NCBI RefSeq assembly: GCF_030013595.1 | Contig: NZ_CP122768.1 | Reading direction: 5' to 3' (one strand) | From: Escherichia coli | GTDB taxonomy: Bacteria > Pseudomonadota > Gammaproteobacteria > Enterobacterales > Enterobacteriaceae | DNA: 64,000 nucleotides | In this document: positions 2,808 through 58,144 of the stretch, in pieces | Numbering within the stretch: position 1 is the stretch's first letter | How the letters are laid out: every line of letters starts with the position of its first letter | Notes under the pieces: generated by a model | The model's input: only the letters and a program-made list of their open reading frames with translations | Databases searched by the model: none | Told to the model about the DNA's origin: nothing | Translations under genes and position numbers: made by a program

Positions 2808-6209
<3,402 letters not shown>

Positions 6210-13894: not shown

Positions 13895-15556
13895 TTACGC
13901 CGCAAGTAGTTCTTTCGCATTCGCCAGTGTGTTACGTGTGACTTCACTGCCACCAAGCAGGCGCGCCAGCTCTTGTAACCGCGCTTTTTTATCCAGGGAT
14001 TGCATATGCGTTTCTGTCATCGCACCATCGGTTTCTTTGCTGACAAAATAGTGTTGATGACCACATCCCGCGACTTGTGGCAGGTGGGTAACACACATCA
14101 CCTGAGTTGATTCGCCAAGTTGACGCAGCAGTTTGCCGACAACTGCCGCTGTTGGACCGCTAATCCCTACATCCACTTCATCAAAAATCAGTGCCGGGGT
14201 TTCCATTTTACGCGCCGTGATGACCTGAATTGCCAATGCGATGCGGGACAATTCACCACCGGATGCAACTTTGGCAATAGGCTGCATTGGCTGACCTGGG
14301 TTGGTGGTTACCCGAAACTCAATACGATCAGCGCCGTCAGCGCCCAGGTGATGCTCGTCAAATTTAATATCGATCGTAAACTGCCCATGTGGCATAGAGA
14401 GCGCATGCATACTTTTGGTGATCAGCTGTGCCAACTCATTTGCATAATGCTGGCGTTGCAGGTGTAATGCGTGCGCGGTTTCCAGTGCCTGCTGATGATG
14501 TTTCGTTACCGCCAGCGCGAGCGTTTCTTGTGAGTCGGCCTGATCGTCCAGTTGCTGCTGTTCTTCCAGTAGCGACTGGTAATACTGTGGCAATGCCTCA
14601 GGGCTGACGTGATGTTTACGTGCCAGCGAAATCTGTTTTGAGATGCGCTGTTCAAGTTCAAACAGTCGGTTGGGATCGAGATCCAGACGATCGCAGTAGT
14701 GGCGCAGTTCATCGCTGGCTTCAGTAATCTGGATGGTAGCTTCTTCCAGCATATCAAGTACGCCGGACAGTTTGCTGTCCATGCCAATCAATTCGCTCAC
14801 CAGTTGTTTAGCCGTGTAAAGCTGACTTTGCAGGTTTGCGTCTTCACCGTCGGCCATTACTGCCAATGCATTCTGGCTGGTAGTCAGCAATTGACCGCTG
14901 TTCGCCAGACGTTTGTACTCTTCGTCGATTTGCTCAAACTCTCCGGGCTGCGGATTAAATTCGTTAAGTTCTTTTAATTGGTATTGCAGCAGTTCTGCAC
15001 GGGCGGCGCGTTCCTGACTTAACTGTTGATGATGCGCGAGGTCACGGCAGCTTTGATGCCACAACTGATAACGTGCGGTCATTTCCTGGAGTAGAGAGGT
15101 TTCATTGGCATAGCCATCAAGCAGGAATTTTTGGTGCTCGGGTTTGGTGAGTAACTGATGAGCGTGCTGACCATGGATCTGAATCAGCAACTGACCCAGT
15201 TCGCGCAGTTGTGAAAGAGGAACCGCTGTACCGTTGATAAAACCACGGGAGCGACCATCGCTGCTGATTACGCGACGAAGCAAACATTCATGCCCGTCTT
15301 CAAGCTGGTTTTCTTCCAGCCAGCGCAGGGCCGCTGGCGTATCTTTCAGAGAAAAACGGGCGCACAGGTCGGCACGAGCAGCGCCGGTACGCACCATGTC
15401 GGCTTCAGCGCGACCACCGAGACAAAGGCCGAGGGCATCTATTGCAATAGATTTACCCGCGCCGGTCTCGCCAGTTATTACGGTCATGCCGCTATGAAAA
15501 TCAATCTCAAGCTCACGAACGATAGCAAAGTTGCTGATGGTCAGTTGTGCCAACAT
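13895..15556 (-). CDS. recN: DNA repair protein RecN
   Basis: 553 aa, N-terminal Walker A (GETGAGKS), SMC-like coiled coil, matches recalled RecN. Confidence 0.95.
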
Positions 15557-15566
15557 AGTTGTTTTC

Positions 15567-15622
15567 CTGTATGAAAAACCATTACTGTTATTGTGTACAG
15601 TATAAACTGGTTTTATATACAG
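15567..15622 (-). promoter_or_regulatory. recN SOS operator region: LexA boxes CTGT-N8-ACAG at 15585-15600 and CTGG-N8-ACAG at 15607-15622, plus weaker third site at 15567-15582
   Basis: Palindromic CTGT..ACAG motifs immediately upstream of recN start; matches the known three-operator recN promoter. Confidence 0.65.
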
Positions 15623-15641
15623 TAAAGAGGCTGGCGTAAAA

Positions 15642-16520
15642 TTAGAATAATTTTTTTGACCAGCCGAGCTTGGTGCTTAATGTATTGAAATAACTGTAAT
15701 CTTTCGGATGAATCAGATTCAGATGGTAATCACAGCGACGAATCAGGACATCTTCACCTTCCTGAATCGGCAGTGCTATCTGGCTGTCGCAACTGATTTC
15801 CAGGTCGTTACGGCGATGCGAAAAACGCAGACGGATCGTGCTGCTGCTGTTTATCACCAGCGGTCGCGCTGACAACGTATGCGGGAACATGGGCACCAGG
15901 GTAATCGCATCCAGAGAGGGTGTCAGAATAGGACCGCCCGCAGAGAGGGAATAGGCGGTGGAGCCTGTTGGCGTCGAAATAATCAGGCCATCAGAACGCT
16001 GAGAAAACGCAAAGATCTCGTCGATATACACTTCGAACTCAATCATATGCGCCACTTTGCCAGGATGAAGTACCACTTCGTTAATCGCCGTGCTGATGCG
16101 TTTCTGGCAATCTTGCTGACAAACTTGCGCTTCCAGCAAAAAACGTTTCTCGCTGATGTAGTGGCCTTCCAGCACATCGGCTAATTGTTGCTGGGCGTTA
16201 TCGGGATCAAGGTCGGTCAGGAAACCCAGGTTGCCACGGTTGATTCCAATAACTTTAATATCGTAACGGGCGAGTGTGCGTGCCGCGCCCAGCATATTAC
16301 CGTCGCCACCAACGACTACCGCGAGATCAGCCAGTTGTCCAATCTCCGCGAGCGTGCCAGTTTTCACATTCTTCAGTTGCAGTTCGTGAGCGATTTGCTG
16401 CTCAACGATGACCTCGTAACCTTTTGTGCACAGCCAGCGGTAGAGCATTTCATGTGTTGTCAGTGCAGTGGGGTGCCGTGGGTGTCCCACAATGCCAATA
16501 CACTTGAAATGATTATTCAT
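15642..16520 (-). CDS. nadK: NAD kinase
   Basis: 292 aa, GGDGN motif, matches recalled NadK. Confidence 0.95.
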
Positions 16521-30445: not shown

Positions 30446-31871
30446 TAATGCCAGTCAGTTAAGCAACTTACTGGCTCTTTTTCGGGGCTGTGGGGTATTT
30501 CCAGGGCCTCTCCTTTACCACTCTCGGGAAGGCCCTTTCCCTTCTTGTCGGTAATTTCACAAGTTGTCCCATACTTGCAAGATCGCGCATCAGCTCCGGT
30601 ATACGTCCCGGTGAAGCGCCCTGCAATGTCATCAGCATTCTCATCACCATTCCGCATGATTCTGAGAAACTCAGTTGATTCGGCCAGTAACCTTTCAGAT
30701 GTTCCGCCATTTTAATCATCTGATATCTCACCAGATTATAAGCCAGTAAGACACCCCACAGCTCTTGCTCCACAAGCTCCGGTTTTTTACTTCTCAGCGT
30801 CAGCCTGCTCAGTTGCATCGTCTGTTTTATCTCCCTGTATCCCAGTTCGATTTCCCAGCGATGACTGTACAGATCCGCCATTTCTCCTCCGGGGAAGCGC
30901 ATGGCGTCCGTCATCGACGTCAGCAGATGGCAGACTTTTCCTTTGCGCGTCACGGTCAGCAGGCGGGCTGTCACTTCATTTCCCAGTCCCGGCCACTTTT
31001 TTCGTGCCTGCGGGCTGGTTTTCAGCTTCACCAGATGATCGCCTTTACCCAGTTTTCTGATCTCTTCATATTGCGCTCCCTTTCTGAGAGGTATCATCCA
31101 GTGGCGGTGTTCTCCCGCCAGGCTCCAGGCATTTAACAGTCCCAGTGAGTAATAACCTTTATCCATTAACGTCAGAGTGTTATCGCCGGTTTGTTCTATA
31201 AGTTGCTCAGCAAGCTCATTTTCGCTGTTCTTCATCGTGCCGAAGGCTGCAGCCGTCAGCAGATGGCTGGTCAGTTCCATCTGGCAGACCATTTTGACCT
31301 GCGGGTAGAGCGCCGGGTTCCCGGCATGTGTCTGGCGGGGGAAGGCTGCATCGTTCTCTGGTGTATCCGGTGTGCGCCAGAACACACCATCGATGGCCAG
31401 CAGGGTCAGGCCGCACCAGTGCGGATGCGGCGTGGCGTTATGCCAGAGCTGCGCTGTTTTCGTGAACACGCGGCGGACAGCCTCACTTCCCAGGCGCTGG
31501 CGGGCCTGAATAACGGCACTGGGAGCAACGAAGGGGCGATTGCCCGGCAGCATGATGTCCAGGCGATTCACAATCTGGTGAAGAGGTTCTTTACGCTCAA
31601 GCGCCATGCCAACAATACACCAGACCATCATTTCGAGGGGAAGACGGCGCTTGCGTAGCGTTACAGTACCTGATTCGGCAAGGCAACGAGAGATGAGTTC
31701 GGGATCGAGGTAATCCCCCAGAGAAGTCAGTGGGTTACGCAGAGAATCGTAACGGGATACCAGATCAAGAGCCTGTCCAATGTGCATAAAAAAATCCGGA
31801 AACAAGTGAGCGTTTCCGGATTCTTACACAGCCACTGGATCGGTCAACTGATCCTTAACTGATCGGCATTA
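30446..31871 (-). mobile_element. Insertion sequence IS4 (1426 bp) with imperfect terminal inverted repeats TAATGCCAGTCAGTTAAG / TAATGCCGATCAGTTAAGG
   Basis: Terminal IRs read from sequence, length equals canonical IS4, single IS4-type DDE transposase ORF, flanking direct repeat. Confidence 0.9.
30468..31805 (-). CDS. insG: IS4 family transposase (InsG)
   Basis: 445-aa ORF matching recalled IS4 transposase; true start may be an internal ATG (MHIGQALD...). Confidence 0.9.
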
Positions 31872-42994: not shown

Positions 42995-44293
42995 ATGGCT
43001 GAAAGTACTGTAACGGCAGACAGCAAACTGACAAGTAGTGATACTCGTCGCCGCATTTGGGCAATTGTGGGGGCCTCTTCAGGTAATCTGGTCGAGTGGT
43101 TCGATTTCTATGTCTACTCGTTCTGTTCACTCTACTTCGCCCACATCTTCTTCCCTTCCGGGAACACGACGACTCAACTACTGCAAACAGCAGGTGTTTT
43201 TGCTGCGGGATTTCTGATGCGCCCGATAGGCGGTTGGCTATTTGGCCGCATAGCCGATAAACATGGTCGCAAAAAATCGATGCTGTTATCGGTGTGTATG
43301 ATGTGTTTCGGCTCACTGGTTATCGCCTGTTTGCCAGGCTACGAAACAATCGGTACCTGGGCTCCGGCATTATTGCTTCTTGCTCGTTTATTCCAGGGAT
43401 TATCCGTTGGCGGAGAATATGGCACCAGCGCCACCTATATGAGTGAAGTTGCCGTTGAAGGGCGCAAAGGTTTTTACGCATCATTTCAGTATGTGACGTT
43501 GATCGGCGGGCAATTGCTAGCTCTACTGGTTGTCGTGGTTTTACAACACACCATGGAAGACGCTGCACTCAGAGAGTGGGGATGGCGTATTCCTTTCGCG
43601 TTAGGAGCTGTGTTAGCTGTTGTGGCGTTGTGGTTACGTCGTCAGTTAGATGAAACTTCACAACAAGAAACACGCGCTTTAAAAGAAGCTGGATCTCTGA
43701 AAGGATTATGGCGCAATCGCCGTGCATTCATCATGGTTCTCGGTTTTACCGCTGCGGGCTCCCTTTGTTTCTATACCTTCACCACTTATATGCAGAAGTA
43801 TCTGGTAAATACTGCGGGAATGCATGCCAACGTGGCGAGTGGCATTATGACTGCCGCATTGTTTGTATTCATGCTTATTCAACCACTTATTGGCGCGCTG
43901 TCGGATAAGATTGGTCGTCGTACCTCAATGTTATGTTTCGGTTCGCTGGCAACCATTTTTACCGTTCCTATTCTCTCAGCATTGCAGAACGTTTCTTCGC
44001 CTTATGCCGCTTTTGGTCTGGTGATGTGCGCCCTGCTGATAGTGAGTTTTTATACTTCAATCAGTGGAATACTGAAGGCTGAGATGTTCCCGGCACAGGT
44101 TCGCGCATTAGGCGTTGGTCTGTCATATGCGGTCGCCAATGCTATATTTGGTGGCTCAGCAGAGTATGTAGCGTTGTCGCTGAAATCAATAGGAATGGAA
44201 ACAGCCTTCTTCTGGTATGTGACCTTGATGGCCGTGGTGGCGTTTCTGGTTTCTTTGATGCTACATCGCAAAGGGAAGGGGATGCGCCTTTAA
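42995..44293 (+). CDS. kgtP: Alpha-ketoglutarate permease KgtP (MFS transporter)
   Basis: 432 aa, 12-TM MFS with [11 protein letters not shown] motif; matches recalled KgtP. Confidence 0.9.
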
Positions 44294-44634
44294 TTATGCG
44301 CCAACTGCCAGACGGTATAGCCAGTAGTTGCACCGGCGACATCCCAGGTAAAATCTTTCCAGCTCCAGCCGCTCCCCTCGGGGCGGCTATCCCAAAGTTC
44401 TTTTGACGCGCCCAGCCCAACAGAGAACATCAGCCCGAAAGTGGCACTGCGATCGCGACTCATCCCCTGATGCTGTGCATATTCATTTCCGGCGGCGGAA
44501 AGCATCGCCGAGGCGATAAAGTGTTGAGCTTTATCCTGCCCGCTCCAGCTATCGTTAGCCATATGGCTGCATCCAGAAAGTAACAATAGCGAGCAGACAA
44601 AAAGAATACGCAAAACGTGGCCTCCAAAAAACAA
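44290..44634 (-). CDS. yfiM: Lipoprotein YfiM
   Basis: Lipobox LLLSGCSH; ORF-track start is TTG, true start uncertain (alternative TTG at 44613); 3' end overlaps kgtP stop by 4 nt. Confidence 0.75.
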
Positions 44635-44658
44635 ACCCCGTACAGGACGGGGTTGTGA

Positions 44659-46017
44659 TTACAGGATGCGGCTAATTAATCGGTCGATGCGGATACGGCG
44701 CAAACGGCGGATGAGTTTACGAACCTTCACCGGATAATCGGCAATACTTTGCAGATCGCGATAGTGCTTAACGATGGTGGTATGCTCGCGGATCAGCTCC
44801 AGTTCTTTCTCTCGCTGCGGCGCAAGCTCCAGTTGTGGATCGTGGATCAAAATGGCGTTTTCCAGATCCAGACGCCAGGCGCGCGGGTTCAGGTTATTAC
44901 CGGTGATCAACATCCACTTATCATCAACCCACATCCCTTTCAGGTGATAGGTGTTGTCGTCATCTTTCCATAACCGAACCACTAGCTGGTCAGTATTGAC
45001 GTAATACTGCAAACGGCTCAGGAAACGACGCAGATTGATCTCATAGAGATAAGGCAATGCGCCAATTATCTTGAAAGGTTCATCTTCCGGAATGTAGAAG
45101 TCGTTCGCGGTTTTATCACCAACAATAATTTCGACCTTTTTCCCTTCGCGCAGCAACTGGATAATATTGCGCACAAGGATTGCTGGCAGGTTGAAGTATG
45201 GCGTACAGATGGTTAGTTTCTGCTCGGCACAAGGCATAAGATGGAAAATGGTCTTGTTCAACAGACTCGATTTCCCCAGCCCCACTAGCGGCGTTACGGA
45301 AAGCTGATCGTTGTCGGCATCGCCCTGGAAATGATAAGCGGCATCACGCAGCTCCTGGCGGAACAGACGAATATCGTTCTTGATTTCCGGGCTTTTTGGC
45401 CGATTAACATCATCCAGACGATTAACGCCGCGGCCATTCATAATATTCTGTGTAACCCATTCAAACATAATGTCTGACATCTTACGGTTACGGATCAGAT
45501 GATAACGGTCGTAGCGATATTTATCGTGCTGATGCAGGTAAACATCGTTCAGGCTGGCACCGCTATAAAGTACGCTATCGTCGATGATAAAGCCTTTAAA
45601 GTGCAGAACACCAAGGGCTTCACGGGTATTGATTGGCACGCCATAAACCGGAACATCTACGCCCGGATTTTCCTGCGCCATGCGGCAGTACCAGTCAGCG
45701 TTAGTGTTAGATGCCGCAGCGCCAATGCGTCCACGTTGTGCACGATGCCAGTCGACCAGCACCCGCACATCCAGTTCAGGACGCTGCCTTTTAGCCTCAT
45801 ACAACGCGTTCAGAATGCCTTTGCCACCGTCATCCTGTTCGAGATACAGGGCGACAATGCAAATGCGCTGCTTCGCGCTGGCTATTTTTTCCAGCAGCGT
45901 CTCCCGGAAGTCGGCGGGAGCGTAAAAGAAATCGACATCATCAACTGATTGAGAAATCTTGGGTAGTTGGGCAAGGTGTTGTTGATGTTTATTACGCTTA
46001 AATTTTGACAACATCAC
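44659..46017 (-). CDS. pssA: CDP-diacylglycerol--serine O-phosphatidyltransferase PssA (PLD superfamily)
   Basis: 451 aa, two HKD-like motifs (HFKGFIID, HLKGMWVD). Confidence 0.95.
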   Translation of the reverse strand: MMLSKFKRNKHQQHLAQLPKISQSVDDVDFFYAPADFRETLLEKIASAKQRICIVALYLEQDDGGKGILNALYEAKRQRPELDVRVLVDWHRAQRGRIGAAASNTNADWYCRMAQENPGVDVPVYGVPINTREALGVLHFKGFIIDDSVLYSGASLNDVYLHQHDKYRYDRYHLIRNRKMSDIMFEWVTQNIMNGRGVNRLDDVNRPKSPEIKNDIRLFRQELRDAAYHFQGDADNDQLSVTPLVGLGKSSLLNKTIFHLMPCAEQKLTICTPYFNLPAILVRNIIQLLREGKKVEIIVGDKTANDFYIPEDEPFKIIGALPYLYEINLRRFLSRLQYYVNTDQLVVRLWKDDDNTYHLKGMWVDDKWMLITGNNLNPRAWRLDLENAILIHDPQLELAPQREKELELIREHTTIVKHYRDLQSIADYPVKVRKLIRRLRRIRIDRLISRIL

Positions 46018-54301: not shown

Positions 54302-54305
54302 AAAT

Positions 54306-54329
54306 AATGCCGGGCTTAAACCCGGCATT
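54306..54329. terminator. Hairpin between convergent yfiE and srmB (AATGCCGGG-loop-CCCGGCATT)
   Basis: 9-bp inverted repeat; T-run present on minus strand side. Confidence 0.5.
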
Positions 54330-54333
54330 GAGA

Positions 54334-55799: not shown

Positions 55800-56537
55800 A
55801 TGTCACAGTCTACATCCGTGCTTCGTCGTAATGGATTTACTTTTAAACAGTTTTTTGTTGCTCACGATCGTTGTGCGATGAAAGTGGGAACGGATGGCAT
55901 TTTGCTGGGCGCATGGGCACCGGTGGCTGGGGTAAAACGTTGCCTTGATATCGGCGCGGGTAGCGGGTTGCTGGCATTAATGCTGGCGCAGCGAACCGAT
56001 GACAGCGTAATGATTGATGCAGTTGAACTGGAAAGTGAAGCTGCCGCGCAGGCGCAGGAAAATATCAACCAGTCCCCGTGGGCAGAGCGGATTAACGTCC
56101 ATACGGCGGATATTCAGCAGTGGATCACACAGCAGACAGTACGCTTCGATTTAATCATCAGTAACCCACCTTACTATCAGCAGGGAGTAGAGTGCTCGAC
56201 ACCTCAACGGGAACAGGCTCGCTATACCACTACGCTTGATCACCCATCGTTGCTGACCTGTGCGGCGGAGTGCATTACCGAAGAGGGATTTTTCTGCGTG
56301 GTGCTGCCAGAGCAGATTGGTAATGGTTTTACTGAACTGGCATTAAGTATGGGCTGGCATTTACGTTTGCGGACGGATGTGGCGGAAAACGAAGCGCGAC
56401 TGCCGCATCGGGTGCTGCTGGCATTCTCCCCGCAGGCGGGAGAATGCTTTAGCGATCGCTTAGTCATTCGTGGGCCAGACCAGAACTATTCCGAAGCGTA
56501 TACGGCGCTGACCCAGGCTTTTTATCTGTTTATGTAA
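55800..56537 (+). CDS. yfiC: tRNA1(Val) (adenine37-N6)-methyltransferase YfiC (TrmN6)
   Basis: 245 aa from [19 protein letters not shown]; NPPY motif (IISNPPYY); 3' end overlaps nadB 3' end by 16 nt. Confidence 0.85.
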
Positions 56538-58144
56538 TGATTGCCGGGGGAAAGGATCGATGGACCGGAATGCGTGAGCAGTTCCGGATAATCCAGCGTG
56601 AAATGCAACCCCCGACTCTCCTTGCGCATCATCGCACAGCAAACAATCAACTCGGCAACCTGTACCAGATTACGCAGCTCCAGCAAATTATTTGAGACGC
56701 GGAAATGGGCGTAATATTCGTCTATTTCTTGTTGGAGCATGGTTATCCGCCGCAGGGCGCGTTCCAGGCGCTTCGTTGTGCGCACAATGCCAACGTAATC
56801 CCACATAAACAGACGTAGCTCGTGCCAGTTATGTTGAATCACCACCCGTTCGTCAGGGTTCTCAACGCGGCTTTCATCCCACGGCGGTAACGTACTGACG
56901 CCGTGGGCATAAGGCATACATCTGGTGATATCTTCTGCCGCCGACCAGCCATAGACCAGACACTCCAGCAAGGAGTTAGAGGCCATGCGGTTAGCGCCGT
57001 GTAAGCCGGTATAACTCACTTCGCCAATGGCATACAAACCCTCGACGTCCGTACGCCCATGATCATCAACCATTACACCACCGCAGGTATAGTGTGCAGC
57101 AGGCACAATCGGTACCGGTTCTTGTGTGAGATCAATCCCCAGCCCGAGCAACTTTTCATAGATCATCGGGAAATGCTGGCGAATAAAATCGGCAGGCTTA
57201 TGGCTGATGTCGAGATACATACAATCCGCACCGAGGCGTTTCATTTCATGATCAATAGCGCGGGCGACAATATCGCGCGGGGCCAGTTCGCCGCGCTCAT
57301 CGAAATCGGGCATAAAACGCGTGCCATCCGGGCGCTTGAGATAAGCGCCTTCGCCGCGCAGTGCTTCTGTTAACAGGAAATTGCGTGCCTGTGGGTGATA
57401 CAGTGCGGTAGGGTGGAACTGATTAAATTCGAGATTGGCAACCCGGCAGCCTGCGCGCCACGCCATAGCAATGCCATCGCCAGAAGAAATATCTGGATTG
57501 GTGGTGTACTGATAAACCTTCGACGCACCGCCGGTTGCCAGTACCACTGCTTTTGCGTGGCAGGTTTCCACCGTTTCTTTATTTCGGTTCCATACCCACG
57601 CGCCAACAACCCGTCGCGTGCCCGGCAGGCCAATTTTGTCAGAGACAATCAGATCAACCGCGTTGCTGCGCTCCAGCACACGAATATTCGGATGGTTCTG
57701 CGCCTTGCTCACCAGCGTGGATTGTACTTCTCTACCGGTGGCGTCGGCGGCATGAAGAATACGACGGTGACTATGTCCACCTTCACGGGTCAGATGGTAG
57801 CTTTCTTCGCCATTCGGTTGAACGTGGGTATCAAACAAAACCCCCTGGTCAATTAACCATTGCACACAGGAACGAGCATTGCTGGCGACAAATTCAACTG
57901 CATGGCGATCGCAAATACCAGCCCCGGCAATCAATGTGTCTTCCACATGCGAGTCAATGCTGTCAGTTTCATCAAACACGGCGGCAATACCGCCCTGGGC
58001 ATAAAATGTTGAACCTTCCGTTACCGGGCCTTTACTTAGAACGATGACCTGATGCTGATCAGCCAGGCGCAGCGCCAGTGAAAGTCCGGCTGCGCCGCTA
58101 CCGATAATCAACACGTCACATGAATGATCAGGGAGAGTATTCAT
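56522..58144 (-). CDS. nadB: L-aspartate oxidase NadB
   Basis: 540 aa, FAD-binding GSGAAGLS motif, matches recalled NadB. Confidence 0.95.

Follow-up and report, generated by a model that had tools for sequence, protein, structure and literature searches.

Two tail-to-tail gene overlaps in Escherichia coli, trmN/nadB and kgtP/yfiM: probable products of coding constraint, with a candidate nadB hairpin inside trmN

The convergent pairs trmN/nadB and kgtP/yfiM overlap at their 3' ends by 16 and 4 nt, respectively, in a 64,000-nucleotide stretch of Escherichia coli DNA (the window). We consider it likely, with a probability a little under 80%, that these are passive, constraint-locked junctions, where transcripts are dealt with by Rho termination and by hairpins embedded in the partner gene. 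Both would then be ordinary, tightly packed convergent junctions in the core genome of Enterobacteriaceae. The overlaps would be by-products of the position of the first in-frame stop, held afterwards by coding constraint, and each mRNA would end inside the partner gene because the junctions have no spacer. The arrangement itself is common, and both overlaps are already annotated in the RefSeq genome of K-12, catalogued as excludons and published. New here is a hairpin for the nadB RNA end that appears to be written inside the coding sequence of trmN.

All four products clear the curated NCBIfam cut-offs, with matches that span essentially the full length of each protein. TrmN matches the equivalog model NF047853 (421.6 bits against a cut-off of 350, residues 2-245), NadB matches NF006567 (1047 bits against 629, residues 2-536), KgtP, a transporter of the MFS type, matches NF007710 (951.7 bits against 550, full length) and YfiM matches NF008028 (193 bits against 117), with 406 YfiM homologues retrieved. 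The last four residues of NadB (YINR) lie outside the family profile.

The trmN stop on the plus strand is TAA at 56535-56537, and the nadB stop on the minus strand, also TAA, is the reverse complement of 56522-56524, which is the junction between the Phe and Tyr codons of TrmN. On the trmN side, the 16 nt hold the codons Y-L-F-M-stop and the final base of the Phe codon, and on the nadB side the codons Y-I-N-R-stop and the final base of the preceding His codon. At the other pair, kgtP stops with TAA at 44291-44293 and yfiM with the reverse complement of 44290-44292. The two stops interlock as YTAR with two positions in common. Four nucleotides is the most common length for a convergent overlap.

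Both pairs consist of real genes on opposite strands with reciprocal, conserved stops, and the two overlaps, as proposed by the sequence-only reading, hold up in the sequence, the open reading frames, RefSeq and the NCBIfam matches. That reading named different stop or start assignments as what could remove the overlaps. This does not apply, with the stops being fixed by the sequence, and start codons are irrelevant because the overlap is at the 3' ends. The same overlaps are annotated in MG1655 (nadB 2710420-2712042 with yfiC 2712027-2712764, and yfiM 2724128-2724451 with kgtP 2724448-2725746) and in the RefSeq annotation of the closest strain. Over 2.6 kb, the window differs from strain HCP5S3_I2 by a single base, and its identity to most E. 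coli is about 97-98%. The features are listed in the table.

Table. Coordinates in the window of the genes, overlaps, transcript regions and structures discussed in the text.
Feature	Position	Strand	Description	Basis
trmN (yfiC) CDS	55800..56537	+	tRNA(1)(Val) m6A37 methyltransferase, 245 aa, C-terminus FYLFM*	ORF and RefSeq (closest strain, K-12)
nadB CDS	56522..58144	-	L-aspartate oxidase, 540 aa	ORF and RefSeq annotation
kgtP CDS	42995..44293	+	alpha-ketoglutarate:H+ symporter, 432 aa	ORF and RefSeq annotation
yfiM CDS	44290..44613	-	YfiM-family (DUF2279) lipoprotein, 107 aa	ORF and RefSeq annotation
trmN/nadB tail-to-tail overlap	56522..56537	both	16 nt	sequence, identical in K-12
kgtP/yfiM tail-to-tail overlap	44290..44293	both	4 nt, TTAA in the window, TTAG in K-12	
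Candidate stem-loop in nadB 3' untranslated RNA	56471..56515	-	within trmN codons 224-239	comparative model
Perfect 10-bp inverted repeat GCATTCTCCC/GGGAGAATGC	56423..56449		in trmN, 73-99 nt past the nadB stop	single-sequence fold
kgtP 3' UTR	44294..44375	+	antisense through the yfiM 3' end	Term-seq (PMC7815308)
Rho zone for kgtP read-through	44376..44999	+	antisense to yfiM and the pssA 3' end	PMC7815308
Predicted hairpin AGCCGCUCC..GGGCGGCU	44367..44388	+ (kgtP-sense)	in yfiM codons for SRPxGSGW	single-sequence fold

Using TrmN (71-97% identity), we gathered 80 loci from Enterobacteriaceae, 79 of which carry both genes. Among these 79 species, 76 share an overlap of exactly 16 nt. The three exceptions overlap by 8, 8 and 12 nt; behind them are a deletion of 1 nt, a junction duplicated in tandem over 14 nt and a nadB tail that has become shorter. 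The TrmN C-terminus is FYLFM* in 79 of the 80 species, with codons that vary synonymously. On the opposite strand, the Phe-Tyr codons TTY-TAY read RTARAA, and the TAR within it, in the nadB frame, is always a stop. In the species alignment, the nadB stop is TAA in species with TTT for the TrmN Phe and TAG in those with TTC, and the NadB tail [HY][IM][NK][RK] likewise tracks the synonymous sites of TrmN. The final conserved motif of NadB, SGPS[VI]LSP, stops 2-3 codons short of the trmN stop.

The exact length of the overlap follows because the FYLFM* ending forces a stop in the nadB frame right next to this NadB motif. NadB runs through 4-5 unconstrained codons and then meets the stop forced by Phe-Tyr, which gives 16 nt. 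The alignment shows this stop-codon lock at work, and it sets the overlap without any need for selection on the overlap itself.

The trmN/nadB overlap is a derived state, with relatives outside Enterobacteriaceae having a spacer instead. In a relative with 50% TrmN identity, the genes are convergent with a 70-nt spacer, and an 8-bp hairpin lies 8 nt past the nadB stop. In a second relative a transporter gene separates trmN from nadB, and in a third there is no nadB at the trmN locus. The nadB gene of Yersinia pestis has a 3' intergenic region of 282 bp (PMC6299119).

The kgtP/yfiM overlap is retained despite considerable sequence variation. The last three residues of YfiM are AHN in the window and TRH in K-12. 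When E. coli genomes are grouped by the identity of the 121-nt kgtP/yfiM junction to the window, 104 have at least 95%, 3,875 have 90-95% and 1,438 have 80-90%. All three deeply diverged E. coli alleles that we inspected keep the 4-nt overlap, as do six of seven other genera (Salmonella, Enterobacter, Citrobacter, Kosakonia, Cronobacter and Buttiauxella). In Klebsiella michiganensis, the two genes are separated by a 2-nt gap. One E. coli strain has IS600 between kgtP and yfiM, and two laboratories routinely place operons at the yfiM-kgtP "intergenic" site (PMC12421378, PMC13425233). Evidently this junction can be disrupted, because both the natural IS600 and the engineered operon insertions occur there.

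In terms of numbers, overlaps of this kind are not rare. E. coli has 75 convergent overlapping gene pairs, and such overlaps arise by loss or movement of a stop codon and are more conserved than non-overlapping neighbours (PMC4161906). The chromosomal part of the window has five convergent junctions, two of them overlapping. This is unremarkable because there are about 75 such pairs among about 370 convergent operon junctions (PMC4161906, PMC4161252), for a binomial estimate of P ~0.26. That the overlaps are conserved exactly across genera is a different matter; this is not due to chance and is explained by coding constraint.

Consensus scans found no intrinsic terminator at either overlap junction, with match counts at the level of shuffled sequences, and a G+C-rich hairpin followed by a U tract past the stop is lacking at both. 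At the neighbouring convergent junctions yfiF/ung, grcA/eamB and yfiE/srmB, the genes lie 47, 54 and 32 nt apart, and every one of these gaps contains a strong hairpin terminator of 10-12 bp. These results bear out the sequence-only reading where it saw no intergenic room and no terminator at the two overlaps. Its wording that there is no room for terminators is correct for intergenic terminators, but 3'-end signals do exist inside the partner coding sequences, as a conserved stem-loop for nadB and probably as hairpins for kgtP (both below). It was also right that the convergent transcripts overlap, since both pairs are in a list of excludons (PMC12288877) and kgtP 3' ends fall in yfiM (PMC7815308). 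The overlap of the coding sequences adds little to this, because transcripts overlap at the 3' end in 276 of 370 convergent operon junctions (75%, by 286 nt on average), with or without overlap of the coding sequences (Conway et al., PMC4161252). As for the scope for antisense interference seen in that reading, interference is a possibility at both loci, and we found no evidence that requires it.

Transcription of kgtP in K-12 continues through yfiM in the antisense direction until Rho stops it (PMC7815308). Term-seq by Adams et al. reports kgtP-strand 3' ends at MG1655 2724397(-) and 2724366(-), classed as "antisense yfiM" (PMC7815308). K-12 coordinates map 1:1 to the window at this locus, with no indels, which places these ends at 44344 and 44375, inside yfiM and 51 and 82 nt beyond the end of kgtP. 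The printed sequences span from -50 to +10 of each 3' end, which we checked on an end internal to kgtP with a listed distance of 157 nt. A region of Rho termination is called in the same study at MG1655 2723742(-), with a Rho score of 18.97 (P 8.7e-91), corresponding to window position 44999, 706 nt past the kgtP stop. Read counts in the 800-nt scoring windows upstream and downstream of it are 576 and 24 in untreated cells, and 1045 and 826 with bicyclomycin (PMC7815308).

Past the kgtP stop there are hairpins at +27 to +44 (in K-12) and at +74 to +95. The +51 end of K-12 is 7 nt beyond a 7-bp hairpin. The +82 end falls at the boundary of the 5' arm and the loop of the second, conserved hairpin (44367-44388), and not just past a hairpin. 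The sequence of this second hairpin is kept in eight of nine genera, with no compensatory changes. It has the lowest value in the scan of yfiM with the recoding test described below (z -1.80, n=9, background sd ~0.5), and the kgtP-sense strand over the last 45 yfiM codons has z from -1.1 to -1.8 (n=9). The C/G ratio after the kgtP stop is 1.35-1.56. An embedded structure serving kgtP in yfiM is, on these comparisons, suggestive only. On the opposite side, a structure serving yfiM in the end of kgtP (minus strand) gave no signal, with z of -0.30 to -0.69.

At the nadB/trmN junction, the Term-seq study has neither a 3' end called for nadB or trmN nor a Rho region, whatever the condition (PMC7815308), and the SMRT-Cappable-seq supplements contain no nadB or trmN 3' ends. 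There is no Rfam family at this junction. Default RNAalifold on the 80 species finds no structure past either of the two stops (-3.1 and -1.3 kcal/mol, 0-1 covarying pairs), and does not predict the nadB stem-loop. This stem-loop surfaced only once a profile of synonymous entropy along trmN indicated two complementary blocks.

The profile, made with 77 species, has one dip, at codons 226-240, where entropy is 0.53 compared with a gene mean of 0.72. The codons with the lowest synonymous entropy in trmN are those of the two stem-loop arms. In the first arm, R224 is CGY, G225 is GGG in 73 of 77 species and P226 is CCA in 60 of 72. In the second, L237 is CTG (73/77), T238 is ACC (72/77) and Q239 is CAG (68/69). 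The GGG at G225 is a rare codon, and the least variable of the 12 Gly codons of trmN; CCA is favoured at P226, whereas the most frequent codon is CCG at six of the seven remaining conserved Pro positions. The ten codons between the arm blocks vary freely.

In nadB sense, the complementary blocks are 5'-UGGGUCAG, pairing with CUGGCCCA-3'. The model has 16 pairs (56515-56500 with 56471-56486) and a 13-nt loop, and it begins 7 nt past the nadB stop. On the nadB strand the hairpin is followed by CGAAUGACUAAG, and a U tract is absent. In this model 84.3% of cells are paired, compared with 37-44% when the partner is slid. Changes on both sides occur at six helix pairs, which 3 of 500 shuffles matched, and double changes occur in 45 helix cells, which none of 500 shuffles matched. 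The helix pair 40-56 alternates repeatedly among G-C, A-U and G.U across genera, and it couples an amino-acid replacement at TrmN residue 229 to a silent substitution in codon 234.

Read as trmN-sense RNA, the helix is poorer: 67% of cells pair, versus 84% on the nadB strand, and two near-invariant U.G pairs turn into A.C. Variable wobble states also favour the nadB strand, with 102 cells as G.U versus 28 as A.C. The stem-loop region, on the trmN-sense strand, is followed by the U-rich FYLFM codons, ahead of the stop of trmN itself. We considered this combination as an intrinsic terminator of trmN and rejected it, given its position before the trmN stop and the two fixed A.C mismatches.

In a recoding test, TrmN was synonymously recoded with the protein and the codon usage of the gene held constant. 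Over 77 species, the native 60 nt past the nadB stop have a mean folding energy of -23.7 kcal/mol, against -16.0 kcal/mol after recoding, for a mean z of -2.07. The opposite strand of the same region has a z of -0.91. Among 78 scan windows covering trmN and nadB on both strands, that of the stem-loop is the most extreme (z -2.38; nadB background -0.2, sd 0.4). The stem-loop of E. coli itself is weak, at -16.2 kcal/mol and a recoding z of -0.84. The last 30 codons of nadB (plus strand) gave no signal for a structure serving trmN, with z from +0.06 to -1.05.

Further into trmN, the 10-bp inverted repeat at 56423-56449 is of Escherichia type, with four invariant pairs remaining in the consensus fold. 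It was rejected as a conserved element: 61.5% of its cells pair, 188 of 500 shuffles do equally well, and the -2 register is as good. This hairpin serves as an internal negative control for the tests applied to the nadB stem-loop.

The scheme that we propose for nadB is like that of kgtP: the stop, 7 nt, a stem-loop, and then a possibly rut-like stretch with more C than G. Taken as raw values, the C/G ratios are 1.45 at +76-150 and 2.00 at +151-225 past the nadB stop. Rho would terminate nadB transcription further downstream, and 3'-to-5' exonucleases would trim the transcript back to the hairpin. For trmN and yfiM, the transcripts probably have diffuse ends made by Rho, antisense to nadB and kgtP. 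The nadB part of this model is purely comparative.

A stronger version of the nadB story may be imagined, which we regard as unlikely. In this version, the stem-loop would have been rebuilt inside trmN at the base of Enterobacteriaceae when the spacer was lost, and would have dictated TrmN codons ever since. It would set the stability of nadB mRNA, and trmN would depend on transcription of nadB. If true, the rare GGG and the CCA would be fixed by the hairpin, and the covariation of residue 229 with the synonymous site of codon 234 would have the same origin. A coding sequence would then be the terminator and stabiliser of its neighbour, with trmN tied to the NadR-controlled nadB.

Alternatively, the two pairs could be functional convergent excludons, in which the overlaps would be maintained for the repression that transcription of one gene exerts on its partner, by collision of RNA polymerases or by RNase III cutting the duplex of sense and antisense RNA. 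Examples would be the NadR-controlled nadB acting against trmN, and the highly transcribed kgtP against yfiM. ExcludonFinder names both "nadB-yfiC" and "yfiM-kgtP" among 165 convergent excludons of the MG1655 "excludome", defined by overlap of RNA-seq coverage in at least 50% of 58 samples, and 146 of these 165 pairs have 3'-end signals inside the transcription unit of the neighbour (PMC12288877). Excludon pairs also have higher synteny than other pairs, and both overlaps are conserved across genera. In addition, reads at kgtP/yfiM are asymmetric, with 576 in the upstream 800-nt window of the Rho call on the kgtP strand versus 30 in 800 nt on the yfiM strand, a stretch spanning yfiM and the kgtP antisense (PMC7815308). 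The perfect conservation of the overlaps and the excludon listing are thus also predicted by selected regulatory coupling, which counts against the passive model.

Still, we find selected repression improbable. Overlapping 3' transcripts are the rule among convergent operons, as stated above (PMC4161252), and the stop-codon lock together with the abutting protein constraints fully explains the conservation. The kgtP/yfiM junction tolerates IS600 and engineered operons (PMC12421378, PMC13425233), and an evident functional link between the partners is absent in each pair. The literature that we searched holds no functional experiment specific to either locus. Sense and antisense transcripts do overlap, and we found no support for this having been selected as a regulatory device.

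A further explanation, which we consider very unlikely, is bidirectional termination of the collision type. Here the embedded hairpins would pause RNA polymerase in both directions, and head-on and trailing collisions would release the transcripts without Rho. Hairpins without U tracts do adjoin both junctions, and this mechanism is described for hundreds of convergent pairs of E. coli (bioRxiv 10.1101/2022.10.23.513370). However, collision terminators are described as independent of Rho (bioRxiv 10.1101/2022.10.23.513370), whereas kgtP read-through is sensitive to bicyclomycin, with a 19-fold increase and a Rho score of 18.97 (PMC7815308). The nadB hairpin markedly favours a single strand. 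The efficiency of such terminators also rises with expression, and expression of nadB, trmN and yfiM is probably too low for efficient collisions, judging by the lack of called 3' ends. Finally, an annotation artefact, with a mis-set stop or a spurious gene such as yfiM, is refuted: short ORFs of this kind (107 aa) are sometimes over-called as a general point, but the sequence itself dictates the stops, each of the four proteins has a full-length match to a curated equivalog or subfamily model of NCBIfam, and orthologues have the same ends across dozens of genera.

Three modest points go beyond the overlaps themselves. The stop-codon lock is a worked example of an overlap length frozen across a bacterial family without selection for overlap. 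The comparative evidence that an mRNA 3'-end hairpin can be carried in the coding sequence of a neighbour, and be visible in its synonymous sites, bears on codon optimisation, recoding and models of synonymous constraint. For users of the "yfiM-kgtP intergenic region", the intergenic space is nil, and insertions placed there cut the mapped 3' untranslated region of kgtP.

When compared with known convergent overlapping pairs, both junctions have the usual features of two real genes on opposite strands, with reciprocal stops in frame and a short overlap. What sets trmN/nadB apart from the typical case is a nadB stop hard-wired by the invariant Phe-Tyr of the partner, resulting in 16 nt throughout the family. 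They also resemble convergent excludons, in the concept of Lasa and Cossart, as adjacent convergent genes with overlapping transcripts, both listed as such (PMC12288877). This listing is by RNA-seq coverage alone, whereas the defining outcome of an excludon is mutual exclusion of expression by interference or RNase III. Bidirectional intrinsic terminators, as apparently seen at yfiF/ung, grcA/eamB and yfiE/srmB, also have one hairpin region serving a convergent junction. In contrast, trmN/nadB and kgtP/yfiM have no spacer, and no U-tract hairpin toward nadB or kgtP.

The closest likeness is to the Rho-terminated mRNAs described by Dar and Sorek in 2018 (PMC6061677), which have a protective stem-loop without a U tract and a rut site just downstream. 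Both nadB and kgtP have a stable stem-loop just past the coding sequence with no U-rich sequence. For nadB, the likeness lies in a stable, conserved stem-loop, the absence of a U tract and, as a candidate rut site, a stretch with more C than G just downstream, and the stem-loop seems to fit the protective hairpin of this type. For kgtP, it lies in the +51 end located 7 nt past a 7-bp hairpin and in the bicyclomycin-sensitive termination downstream. Unlike the hairpins of that study, which lie in untranslated spacer, the one proposed here would sit in the coding sequence of the convergent gene and be kept through its synonymous sites.

In E. coli, the junction between the convergent genes kgtP (+) and yfiM (-), which overlap by 4 nt at 44290-44293, forms a hot spot of polymorphism (window 44230-44350; compared with database loci L002 and L092). 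Three allele classes are found over these 121 nt, with identities of about 100%, 91-93% and 81%. The window allele is rare, being present in 104 of 5,425 genomes. Its differences from K-12 fall to the yfiM side of the overlap; for the third allele they fall to the kgtP side. The two sets of differences therefore meet at the overlap itself, a pattern that suggests recombination at this point. An insertion was also found, with IS600 placed exactly between kgtP and yfiM in E. coli Z1323MEC0002 (database locus L093, 580-1736), so that the pair is uncoupled in nature. In this strain kgtP is annotated with 430 aa, compared to 432.

In terms of transcript ends, K-12 Term-seq data (PMC7815308) show that a strong 3' end lies within kgtP, at 157 nt past the start codon (MG1655 2725589, window about 43152). 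This end has four entries in the three-condition table, of which the two considered here are in different growth-condition sheets. Its Rho score is 0.75, hence it is not Rho-dependent, and it may represent premature termination or processing in the 5' region of kgtP. On the yfiM strand, a Rho termination region with a score of 3.05 is called just past pssA, 12 nt before the yfiM start (MG1655 2724116, window about 44625), where reads fall from 179 to 30 (PMC7815308). This drop suggests that yfiM is shielded in part from read-through out of pssA.

As for the second overlapping pair, trmN (yfiC) and nadB, with a 16-nt overlap at 56522-56537 in the window, Escherichia sp. ESNIH1 has a 14-nt tandem duplication (TCTCTTTATGTAGT) of the junction (about 3725-3752 of database locus L034), which leaves an overlap of 8 nt instead of 16 and alters the NadB tail. 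Over 2.6 kb, the window and its closest database strain, HCP5S3_I2, differ by one base, with C versus A at 56547, in the variable NadB tail.

The window also contains several mobile elements. The P2-like prophage adjoins raiA and, besides the genes listed below, encodes a Hok/Gef toxin, Com with a DNA methyltransferase, and an ATP-dependent nuclease.

Mobile elements and their positions in the window
Feature	Position	Details
P2-like prophage	1-29700	portal, terminase, capsid, tail, lysis and Ogr/Delta genes
IS3-family transposase	about 15216-16444	splits prophage tail-fibre gene
IS4 copy	30468-31805	between raiA and bamD

Lastly, the convergent gap between yfiE and srmB is 32 nt in the window (54302-54333) versus 208 nt in K-12, where an extra element has presumably been inserted. 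In K-12, Rho termination regions are found inside both partners, at 2714601+ and 2713962- (PMC7815308).
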